Shown here: one piece after another, positions 29,909-32,481 of the stretch | How positions within the stretch are numbered: the stretch's first letter is position 1 | Layout: every line of letters begins with the position of its first letter | From: a virus | Lineage: Duplodnaviria > Heunggongvirae > Uroviricota > Caudoviricetes | IMG/VR virus record: IMGVR_UViG_2597490083_000002 | Length of the DNA: 57,346 nucleotides | Strand: one strand, 5' to 3' | Position numbers and translations under genes: made by a program | The notes under the pieces: model-generated | Database searches by the model: none | What the model saw: only the letters and a program-made list of their open reading frames with translations | What the model was told of the DNA's origin: nothing

Positions 29909-29972
29909 TGAGGTAGCCTGAGTTTAACGGACACTCCTTCCTGAAATAGAATGGCATCAGAAGGAGCTAATA

Positions 29973-30275
29973 ATGAGCAGAAAAACCCAACGTTACTCTA
30001 AAGAGTTCAAAGCCGAAGCTGTCAGAACGGTTCTTGAAAATCAACTTTCGATCAGTGAAGGCGCTTCCCGATTATCTCTTCCTGAAGGCACTTTAGGACA
30101 ATGGGTTACCGCCGCCAGAAAAGGGCTCGGTACTCCTGGTTCCCGCACGGTGGCTGAACTGGAATCTGAAATTCTGCAACTGCGTAAGGCGTTAAATGAA
30201 GCTCGCCTTGAGCGAGATATATTAAAAAAAGCAACAGCGTATTTTGCACAGGAGTCGCTGAAAAATACGCGTTAA
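29973..30275 (+). CDS. IS600 OrfA
   Basis: Identical 100-aa ORF. Confidence 0.9.
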   Translation: MSRKTQRYSKEFKAEAVRTVLENQLSISEGASRLSLPEGTLGQWVTAARKGLGTPGSRTVAELESEILQLRKALNEARLERDILKKATAYFAQESLKNTR

Positions 30276-30325
30276 TCGAACAATGAACCGCCCCGGGTTT
30301 CCTGGAGAGTGTTTTATCTGTGAAC

Positions 30326-31212
30326 TCAGGCTGCCAGATCATCGTTTCCGATGGAAGCATAATAAGCTTTTTCTGCTTCTGCCGGAGGGATGTGGCCCAG
30401 CCTTTCCAGCAATCGTCGATTGTTATACCAGTCCACCCACGTGAGTGTGGCCAGTTCCACTTCTGCACGGTTTTTCCAGCTCTTACGGTGTATTACCTCC
30501 GCTTTGTAAAGACCATTGATGCTCTCCGCCATCGCGTTGTCATACGAGTCGCCTGTACTTCCTGTTGATGCCAGTAATCCGGCTTCCTTAAGCCGCTGTG
30601 TGTAGGCCAGCGATACATACTGAGAACCTTTATCACTGTGATGGACCGTGCCGGACGGTCGACGGGCCCATAACGCCTGCTCCAGTGCATCCAGCACGAA
30701 TGTCGTTTCCATGGACGATGAGACCCGCCACCCCACGATGTATCCGGCAAACACATCAATGATGAACGCCACATAGACGAAGCCCCGCCATGTGCTGACG
30801 TAAGTAAAATCAGCCACCCACAGCTGGTCAGGTCGTTCTGCCACGAACTGACGGTTTACGCGGTCGCCTGCGGCAACGGCTTTCCGGCTGATGGTCGTAC
30901 GGACCTTTTTACCCCGGAGAACACCGGCAAGTCCCATAACCGCCATGAGACGTGCCACAGTGCATCTGGCCACTCTGATACCTTCCCGTAACAACTGACG
31001 CCAGACTTTACACCGTATACCTTGTGATTTTCATCGTATACGCGCTGTATCTCTTTCTTCAGCCAGTCATCGCGCTGCGCACGGGCACTGCGTTTATCCG
31101 GATGATGTCGCTGTTGCTGACAGTGGTAATACGTTGACGGGGCAATATGCAGTTCGCTGCATAGCGGTCCGACCCCGTACTGCTCACGCAGCTTATCCAG
31201 CAGTGGCATCAT
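30326..31212 (-). pseudogene. IS629 OrfB, frameshifted
   Basis: OrfB is split between ORFs 30856..31212 and 30326..30994, which overlap in different frames. Confidence 0.75.
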
Positions 31213-31535
31213 TTTTTCCAGAGGCGGTCGAACTCCGCCTTCGCAAAATAAGCGGAAGCCTGGCGAAGGATATCGTTACTGCGGCGCAGTTCACGATTTT
31301 CACGCTCCGGCTCTTTCAGACGCTGACGTTCAGCGGTGGTGAGCCCTCCATCACCGCCCCCGGTATCCCGCTCATGCTGGCGAACCCAGACACGCAGAGT
31401 CTCCGGCGTACAGCCAATCTTTGGAGCAATGGAACAAATTGTCGCCCATTGTGAGTCATATTCGCCCTGACTTTCCAGAACCATACGGACTGCCCGTTGA
31501 CGGACTTCGGGGGAAAAACGAGTATTTTTAGTCAT
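31209..31535 (-). CDS. IS629 OrfA
   Basis: [42 protein letters not shown]... 108 aa. Confidence 0.85.
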
Positions 31536-31619
31536 CCTGTTTACCTCTTTCTCAGGAAGTTTAGTCTCCAGGATTCCCGGGGCGGTTCACAATGGCGACA
31601 ACAATTTCCCATTGAAGCG

Positions 31620-32438
31620 ATGTGTCAGGTATTTGGTGTATCCAGGAGCGGTTATTACAACTGGGTACAGCATGAACCCTCAGACAGAAAACAAAGTGAT
31701 GAGCGGCTAAAACTGGAGATTAAGGTGGCACATATCCGCACTCGCGAAACATATGGAACCCGGCGGCTCCAGACGGAGCTGGCAGAGAATGGCATCATCG
31801 TTGGTCGTGACCGACTGGCACGTCTTCGTAAGGAGCTGAGGCTACGCTGTAAGCAGAAACGCAAGTTCAGAGCGACTACGAACCCGAACCACAATCTGCC
31901 AGTTGCGCCAAATCTGCTGAACCAGACGTTCGCTCCTACAGCACCAAATCAGGTCTGGGTGGCGGACCTGACGTATGTTGCCACACAGGAGGGATGGTTG
32001 TACCTCGCTGGCATCAAAGATGTTTATACGTGCGAAATTGTCGGCTACGCCATGGGAGAGCGCATGACAAAAGAGCTGACAGGTAAAGCCCTGTTTATGG
32101 CGCTCAGGAGCCAGCGCCCACCTGCCGGGCTAATCCACCACTCTGATCGAGGTTCACAGTACTGCGCATACGATTACCGGGTCATACAGGAGCAGTCTGG
32201 TCTGAAAACATCAATGTCGCGTAAAGGTAACTGTTACGACAACGCTCCGATGGAAAGCTTCTGGGGAACGCTGAAAAATGAGAGCCTGAGCCACTATCGT
32301 TTTAATAACCGGGATGAAGCCATCTCAGTAATACGGGAATACATTGAGATTTTCTACAATCGTCAGCGTCGTCACTCTCGTCTGGGGAATATCTCCCCGG
32401 CAGCCTTCAGGGAAAAATATCATCAGATGGCTGCTTAA
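31620..32438 (+). CDS. IS600 OrfB
   Basis: Identical 272-aa ORF; the upstream extension in ORF 31497..32438 is IS629 end sequence. Confidence 0.85.
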   Translation: MCQVFGVSRSGYYNWVQHEPSDRKQSDERLKLEIKVAHIRTRETYGTRRLQTELAENGIIVGRDRLARLRKELRLRCKQKRKFRATTNPNHNLPVAPNLLNQTFAPTAPNQVWVADLTYVATQEGWLYLAGIKDVYTCEIVGYAMGERMTKELTGKALFMALRSQRPPAGLIHHSDRGSQYCAYDYRVIQEQSGLKTSMSRKGNCYDNAPMESFWGTLKNESLSHYRFNNRDEAISVIREYIEIFYNRQRRHSRLGNISPAAFREKYHQMAA

Positions 32439-32481
32439 AAAAAGAACAAATGGTAGTGTCCGCTATTGCCAGTACACCTCA

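Follow-up and report, generated by a model that had tools for sequence, protein, structure and literature searches.

A decayed lambda-like Shigella flexneri prophage with a probable two-step insertion sequence scar

Introduction

Insertion sequences (ISs) crowd the genomes of Shigella. Each chromosome holds 229-348 of them, and IS600 belongs to the five families that have expanded (Hawkey et al. 2020, PMC7373316). The IS-driven decay of Shigella genomes described there (PMC7373316) involves variation of ISs from strain to strain and IS-mediated deletions. Both are found in the locus analyzed here, a pair of nested ISs lying within a lambda-like prophage, which is one specific case of that process and nothing different in kind. 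The locus resides in a stretch of 57,346 nucleotides, IMG/VR virus record IMGVR_UViG_2597490083_000002, hereafter called the window. Decay of prophages by ISs, as the nesting of one IS within another, is already known and is routine in Shigella.

Both elements belong to the IS3 family. IS600 encodes OrfA (100 aa), OrfB (272 aa) and, via -1 slippage on the motif A AAA AAA, a fused OrfAB product of 385 aa; equivalent E. coli copies are labelled in RefSeq as 'IS3-like element IS600 family transposase'. The IS600 copy of interest, third in the window, shares these features once its insert is excised, but is cut at position 375/376, and the 3-bp target duplication usual for IS600 is missing. The element sitting in the cut resembles members of the IS629/IS1203/IS3411 group in having TG...CA terminal repeats, an orfA of the HTH type, an orfB of the DDE (rve) type, an ALIL frameshift pseudoknot, and a 3-bp target duplication. 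It differs in measuring 1306 rather than 1310 bp, and in a 4-bp deletion of orfB which abolishes the OrfAB transposase.

The prophage conforms to the cos-Nu1-A module of lambda and phage 21, as found in the prophage of the enteroinvasive E. coli (EIEC) strain CFSAN029787 and in the phage PhiR12_1, where genes are ordered as lysozyme, Rz/Rz1, (cos), Nu1, A, W, portal, protease, D, E and so on. In lambda, cosB is bound by the N-terminal domain of Nu1, and nicking takes place at cosN. The window prophage is 95-99.6% identical in DNA sequence to the EIEC prophage, but lacks cos, the first 67 codons of Nu1, and the 3' ends of Rz and Rz1, and has frameshifted gpA and portal genes. The whole structure is read here, with a probability of about 0.9, as a two-step IS scar in a decayed lambda-like prophage of S. 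flexneri.

Results

An IS629-type element interrupts one of three IS600 copies

IS600 end motifs are found three times in the window, against none expected by chance (Table 1). Copies A and B are uninterrupted, and both carry a single CAA within CGAACAATGGCGAC. The third copy is split by an IS629-type element, bounded by TGAACCGCC...GGCGGTTCA and flanked by CAA on each side. Once the 1306-bp insert and one CAA are removed, a 1264-bp IS600 is restored, which differs from copy B at 1 base, and from the two other window copies at 1-3 positions. An earlier reading of the window, made from the sequence only, had placed an IS629-type element in the IS600 copy starting at 29909, and had taken it for a secondary insertion. 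Coordinates and description of this copy, ends of the inner element and CAA direct repeat all proved exact, and alignment of the three IS600 copies showed CAA doubled around the insert and single in both uninterrupted copies.

The strongest proof that the insertion is secondary comes from orthologous empty sites, rather than from the paralogous copies. In nine chromosomes of the S. flexneri type (L006-L010, L012-L015), both flanks are 99.9% identical to those of the window and the junctions are identical, ATCCGGGACGGG before and AACTACTCATTG after IS600, but the IS600 at this site is an uninterrupted 1264-bp copy with a single CAA. Among the loci examined, nesting is confined to the window, to S. 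flexneri SFBU1023, and to the sequence CP178302.1, assigned to 'E. coli ECMA0423', a noisy assembly with many indels, 98.6% identity, and an inner element of 1292 bp. The empty orthologous site in nine chromosomes shows that IS629 is a later arrival, restricted to a sublineage. Exact matches to the truncated Rz protein of 134 aa were found in 311 blocks of the assembly collection.

Junctions were searched in E. coli genomes and plasmids with 160-bp and 60-bp queries, keeping single-piece matches, and discarding two-piece matches, in which IS600 is merely near IS629. A scan of the IMG/VR viral contigs gave no match to the exact IS600/IS629 junction; the Rz/IS600 junction was found in 5 short contigs, which add no information. 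The reverse nesting, IS600 inserted into IS629, was considered and rejected, because IS629 is unbroken, with an inverted repeat at either end, while the two parts of IS600 rejoin perfectly.

Table 1. Position of IS and prophage features in the window
Feature	Position	Strand	Remarks
IS600 copy A	5779-7042	+	1264 bp, uninterrupted
IS600 copy B	19502-20765	-	1264 bp, uninterrupted
IS600 third copy	29909-32481	+	2573 bp, split by IS629-type element
Left 375 bp of split IS600	29909-30283	+	left inverted repeat (IRL), orfA, slip site; last 3 bp (30281-30283) CAA, one copy of the duplication
IS600 orfA	29973-30275	+	stop codon 30273-30275
IS600 slip site A AAA AAA	30224-30230	+	
IS629-type IS3-family element	30284-31589	-	1306 bp, predicted non-autonomous
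IS629-type orfB fragments	30856-31212 and 30326-30994	-	Pfam rve
ALIL frameshift pseudoknot	31138-31254	-	complete; Rfam 120 bits, gathering score 50
IS629-type orfA	31209-31535	-	108 aa, Pfam HTH_Tnp_1
Right 892 bp of split IS600	31590-32481	+	second CAA (31590-31592), then IS600 positions 376-1264, right inverted repeat (IRR)
IS600 orfB	31620-32438	+	ATG at 31620
Rz (i-spanin)	29507-29908	+	truncated after codon 134 of about 155; Pfam Phage_lysis profile 1-104/126
Rz1 (o-spanin), embedded	29727-29908	+	Pfam Rz1 match
Nu1 (small terminase), 3' fragment	32482-32789	+	codons 68-169 of 169; Pfam Phage_Nu1 profile 86-163/164
gpA (large terminase)	32761-34671	+	Pfam GpA_ATPase and GpA_nuclease, both domains present
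Portal, pseudogene	34872-36465	+	two Phage_portal_2 calls in S. flexneri loci

The inner element was defective before it landed

The inverted repeats of the inner element, which start with TGAACCGCCCCGGG... at both ends and run from TG to CA, match at 24 of 30 positions. The element is 99.2% identical to an intact 1310-bp IS3-family copy on an E. coli plasmid, and approximately 96% identical to the IS1203 of pO157. Relative to intact 1310-bp copies, 4 bp (GTGC) are missing between 31011 and 31012; orfB is split, and no intact OrfAB transposase is encoded. The frameshift had been noticed in the sequence-only reading, and only its origin has to be refined, as the lesion did not arise here. The identical 4-bp gap is found in a 1306-bp copy on the invasion plasmid (pINV) of EIEC O121, annotated as frameshifted in RefSeq, and copies 1306 bp long, with 99.4-99.8% identity, reside on pINV plasmids of S. 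flexneri. The gap being common to Shigella and EIEC pINV copies, the frameshift is inherited, and predates the insertion described here.

Another 1306-bp copy (L057) carries its own 3-bp target duplication, as do other IS629 copies. By these footprints the defective 1306-bp variant has moved more than once, presumably by means of a transposase supplied in trans. The orfA of the window element also carries a leucine to proline change in the leucine-zipper region (KEPERENRE versus KELERENRE, window positions 31255-31257), missing in the other copies compared.

The insertion ends the IS600 fusion transposase

The insertion point lies 3' of the orfA stop codon and 5' of the orfB ATG, yet inside the frame of the -1 OrfAB fusion. 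The reconstructed OrfAB product measures 385 aa in the uninterrupted element, and 104 aa with the insert; the interrupted frame reads ...ALIEQ, and then meets a TGA provided by the IS629 end. A fused 385-aa gene of equal length has been called in several S. flexneri genomes. The insert does lie between the two reading frames, as was said from the sequence only; the split is not neutral, because OrfAB is ended at residue 104 of 385. With both ends intact and its own transposase predicted to be lost, the third IS600 would be a non-autonomous element.

IS600 replaces the segment between Rz and Nu1

The outer IS600 sits between two truncated phage genes. Rz ends with ...GIRDG at 29908, its stop codon (TGA, 29909-29911) being the first TGA of IS600. 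Full-length Rz measures 155 aa in mEp460 and in EIEC CFSAN029787, against 134 aa here. The last 8 codons of Rz1 are replaced by residues GEVA and a stop codon, encoded by IS600, while the EIEC Rz1 ends with ...SGTELSATKQH; neither member of the spanin pair has thus its full-length C-terminus. At the opposite side, the N-terminal DNA-binding part of Nu1 (codons 1-67) is gone.

The prophage of EIEC CFSAN029787 (L018) is the closest one retaining the interval, and was taken as reference. The left flank aligns to its position 1262 (94.7% identity), the right flank from 2470 (99.6% identity), and its Nu1 starts at 2268. Positions 1263-2469, about 1207 bp, are missing in the window. This interval of the reference comprises the final 21 codons of Rz and 8 of Rz1, a DUF4406 gene, the cos region, and the initial 202 nt of Nu1 (67 of 169 codons). 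As the reference is only 94.7% identical on the Rz side, against 99.6% on the Nu1 side, the length of the lost segment and the genes it held are to be taken as estimates, and the flanks may differ in history; the small accessory gene, DUF4406 in the reference, was probably part of it.

In the EIEC prophage, a cosN-like site lies 226 bp upstream of Nu1, and is followed by a TTTATGAAAATTTT motif. PhiR12_1, a phage more distantly related, has a canonical GGGCGGCGACCT at the same place in the interval. No cosN-like 12-mer (≤1 mismatch) was found in the window prophage. The only 1-mismatch match in the window is at 1374, inside the chromosomal dcuC gene, and is taken as chance. No homologue of the cos region of the relatives was found in the window. 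According to the sequence-only reading, IS600 joins Rz to an internal point of Nu1, and leaves neither cos nor an intact small terminase. This is borne out, Pfam profiles showing both genes truncated, and comparison of the Rz-Nu1 interval with relatives revealing no intact cos-Nu1 in the window. The replaced part of Nu1 had been given as its 5' half; the N-terminus is lost, but the loss amounts to about 40% of the codons. That the missing segment had moved beside another IS600 of the window was checked and rejected, the only match being one of 60 bp, 83% identical, to a different Rz remnant (16306-16365).

The third IS600 is flanked by GGG at left and AAC at right, and a target duplication is missing also in the two other window copies. 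At many other sites IS600 is flanked by 3-bp target duplications. Because IS600 normally makes such a duplication, and none is found here, the third copy is interpreted as a deletion or recombination junction. The 8 nt at its left, GGGACGGG (window positions 29901-29908, within Rz), are identical to the residues at 1839-1846 of the locus L026, in the holin gene of 90-3040, a strain of E. coli that produces Shiga toxin (STEC). GGGACGGG does not qualify as a general IS600 target preference, as it was not seen at about 117 other IS600 sites.

The packaging module

Aligned with its EIEC homologue, gpA lacks 1 nt near 34598, and its ~30 C-terminal residues are thereby replaced; the deletion is common to the S. 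flexneri loci L007, L009 and L014. The portal gene is broken by one additional T near 35860 into two ORFs (open reading frames), of 351 and 207 aa, and this lesion is also common to S. flexneri loci. The portal gene of the EIEC relative carries a different frameshift. Of the components of a functional lambda-type cos module, namely cos, a full-length small terminase, and intact gpA and portal, none is present in the window. Because cos and the N-terminal domain of Nu1 are both lost, packaging of the prophage's own DNA should be abolished; gpA and portal being also frameshifted, the predicted failure is over-determined. The conclusion that the prophage would be unable to package its own DNA is well supported.

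IS629-group elements recur at the same IS600 site

Elements of the IS629 group interrupt IS600 at 375/376 also at unrelated loci in E. coli, with identical orientation and CAA repeat. In STEC 90-3040 (L026), the composite lies in a holin locus, and the inner element is an intact 1310-bp unit with 11 mismatches to the window copy. The same holin locus is occupied in STEC 2012C-4227 (L024), with a further deletion, and only the right junction is found in STEC 2013C-3492. In the pig enterotoxigenic E. coli (ETEC) strain ETEC1749 (L025, NZ_CP122712.1), the inner element, of the IS1203 type, differs by 53 mismatches from the window copy and by 7 from the IS1203 of pO157, and the host IS600 carries IS30, too. 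Additional IS629 insertions in IS600 are located about 20 and 100 bp away (L127, L129).

Three variants of the group, the 1306-bp Shigella element, the 1310-bp STEC element and the IS1203 of pig ETEC, sit at one base, which indicates a target preference. IS600 375/376 (…ATCGAACAA^TGGCGAC…) may accordingly be a sequence-specific hot spot for IS629/IS1203, and the region of overlap between orfA and orfB a landing pad for other ISs, a proposal put at slightly less than even odds. Alternatively, an old composite may have been spread by recombination, and its inner element homogenised later. A full-text literature search combining IS600 and IS629 retrieved no title or abstract concerning IS629 inserted in IS600.

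IS600::IS30 composites of 2487 bp were also seen at several genomic sites, in viral-contig loci such as L056, at one site with a 3-bp duplication. In the ETEC1749 locus (L025, 1933-3479), the IS30/IS600 junction is near IS600 position 327. Either IS600 contains a hot spot for IS30, or the IS600::IS30 composite moves as a unit.

Surroundings of the prophage

The window is a patchwork made by dcuC, a Mu-like remnant, head genes of another phage, a Terminase_3 fragment, a second Q/Rz region, the lambda-like prophage, and an ipaH-type gene. In the Mu-like remnant (3255-5781), a repressor is found together with a MuA transposase, which is cut by IS600 copy A at residue 544. Beyond copy A (7283-12053), portal, Mu-F-like, protease and capsid genes are found on the opposite strand, which suggests an IS600-mediated inversion at copy A.

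A diverged second Rz/Rz1 remnant is located at 16306-16531 (- strand), and a 406-bp post-Q repeat is present at 18329-18733 and 27366-27771 (98.5% identity). Remnant and repeat are signs of a further lambdoid late region, which lies upstream of the main prophage. Another IS3-family element, 1252 bp long, is present in two inverted copies, 99.8% identical, at 16542-17793 (+) and 22800-24051 (-). In five S. flexneri loci (L009, L010, L012, L013, L015), the sequence corresponding to window ~17790 is joined directly to ~24025, by a rearrangement between the 1252-bp copies.

A 619-aa ORF at 20977-22836 (+) is of the Toprim primase-like type, and possibly harbours an intein or homing endonuclease, as weak Hom_end_hint and LAGLIDADG matches occur in its C-terminal half. 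Just past the tail-fibre genes, a type III effector gene of the IpaH family (LRR_TTSS and NEL E3 ligase domains) is found at 54524-56287 (-). Some S. flexneri genomes carry, between the Q antiterminator and holin genes, a group II intron reverse transcriptase (RVT_1 and GIIM domains) missing in the window; it was found at L006 5949/7870, corresponding to window 27375/27376, and at L008 2445-3968.

Discussion

The history best fitting the data would have two steps. In the former, old and common to all the S. flexneri genomes examined, IS600 would have come to join Rz codon 134 to Nu1 codon 68, by recombination between two IS600 insertions in the same orientation, or by an IS600-mediated adjacent deletion. 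Approximately 1.2 kb would have been removed: the cos region in full, the 3' ends of Rz and Rz1, the cos-recognising part of Nu1, and probably a small accessory gene. In the latter step, recent and confined to a sublineage, a 1306-bp IS629 would have entered IS600 at 375/376, in the opposite orientation, duplicating CAA. This element, already lacking 4 bp in orfB, would have been moved by a transposase acting in trans. The predicted outcome is an IS600 whose OrfAB is ended downstream of A AAA AAA, in a prophage devoid of cos, functional small terminase and intact spanins.

Some observations weigh against this history. The defective IS629 would have needed a transposase from another source. At other loci, too, IS629-type elements occupy this IS600 site, so gene conversion from another composite is possible. 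The left flank is less similar than the right flank to the closest prophage keeping the interval (94.7% versus 99.6%). The left breakpoint is uncertain by one base, as residue 29908 is G in the window and A in the relatives. Moreover, the loss of packaging is a prediction from sequence.

The rival accounts concern either of the two steps. An IS600::IS629 composite already formed elsewhere, in this genome or on incoming DNA, might have recombined with this IS600 copy through its homologous 375-bp and 889-bp arms, and so converted it, bringing in the CAA...CAA structure as well. Junctions, orientation and CAA are identical at unrelated loci in E. coli 90-3040, 2013C-3492, 2012C-4227 and ETEC1749; IS600 copies at the orthologous locus differ between strains by scattered SNPs (single nucleotide polymorphisms), as expected if ISs exchange sequences; and conversion needs no transposase, which fits a defective IS629. 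No second composite was however found in the window, in the top-matching Shigella pINV plasmids, or in 120 prophage contigs. Inner elements in the three lineages, in addition, are different variants, each matching the IS629/IS1203 type resident there, and independent insertions fit this pattern better. Conversion is on balance unlikely.

Less probable still is that the Rz and Nu1 sides derive from different lambdoid prophages or from distant regions, joined by recombination via IS600, in which case much more than 1.2 kb would have been lost or relocated. The unequal identity of the flanks to the EIEC reference would fit this origin, as would the presence in the window of at least two further phage remnants (second Q region, second Rz/Rz1 fragment, Terminase_3 fragment, Mu-like genes), the variation of IS-bounded rearrangements between strains, and the lack of target duplications at all three IS600 copies. 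Mosaic identity is nonetheless normal for lambdoid phages, and the missing segment does not lie beside another IS600 of the window. Q, holin, lysozyme, Rz, Nu1, A, W and portal follow each other in canonical lambda order on one strand, as in the EIEC prophage and PhiR12_1, where the interval is contiguous. Misassembly of collapsed or joined IS repeats, to which IS-rich Shigella genomes are prone, and one of the supporting assemblies (ECMA0423) is indel-rich, is hardly credible as source of the nested structure. The junctions recur in independent assemblies (SFBU1023, ECMA0423 and the window), and neither a perfect 3-bp duplication nor exact restoration of IS600 is expected from misassembly. 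An IS600-associated deletion followed by insertion of IS629 into IS600 remains the preferred history.

The window provides a base-resolution record of a lambdoid prophage, with an ipaH effector gene at its far end, locked into the S. flexneri chromosome, and the IS629-in-IS600 junction is a clean presence/absence marker for a S. flexneri sublineage. Current understanding is left unchanged, and the apparent IS629 hot spot in IS600 is the only point that might repay work. Should the hot spot be real, ISs would be targeted to other ISs instead of entering them at random, and trans-mobilisation would be spreading a defective lineage of IS629.

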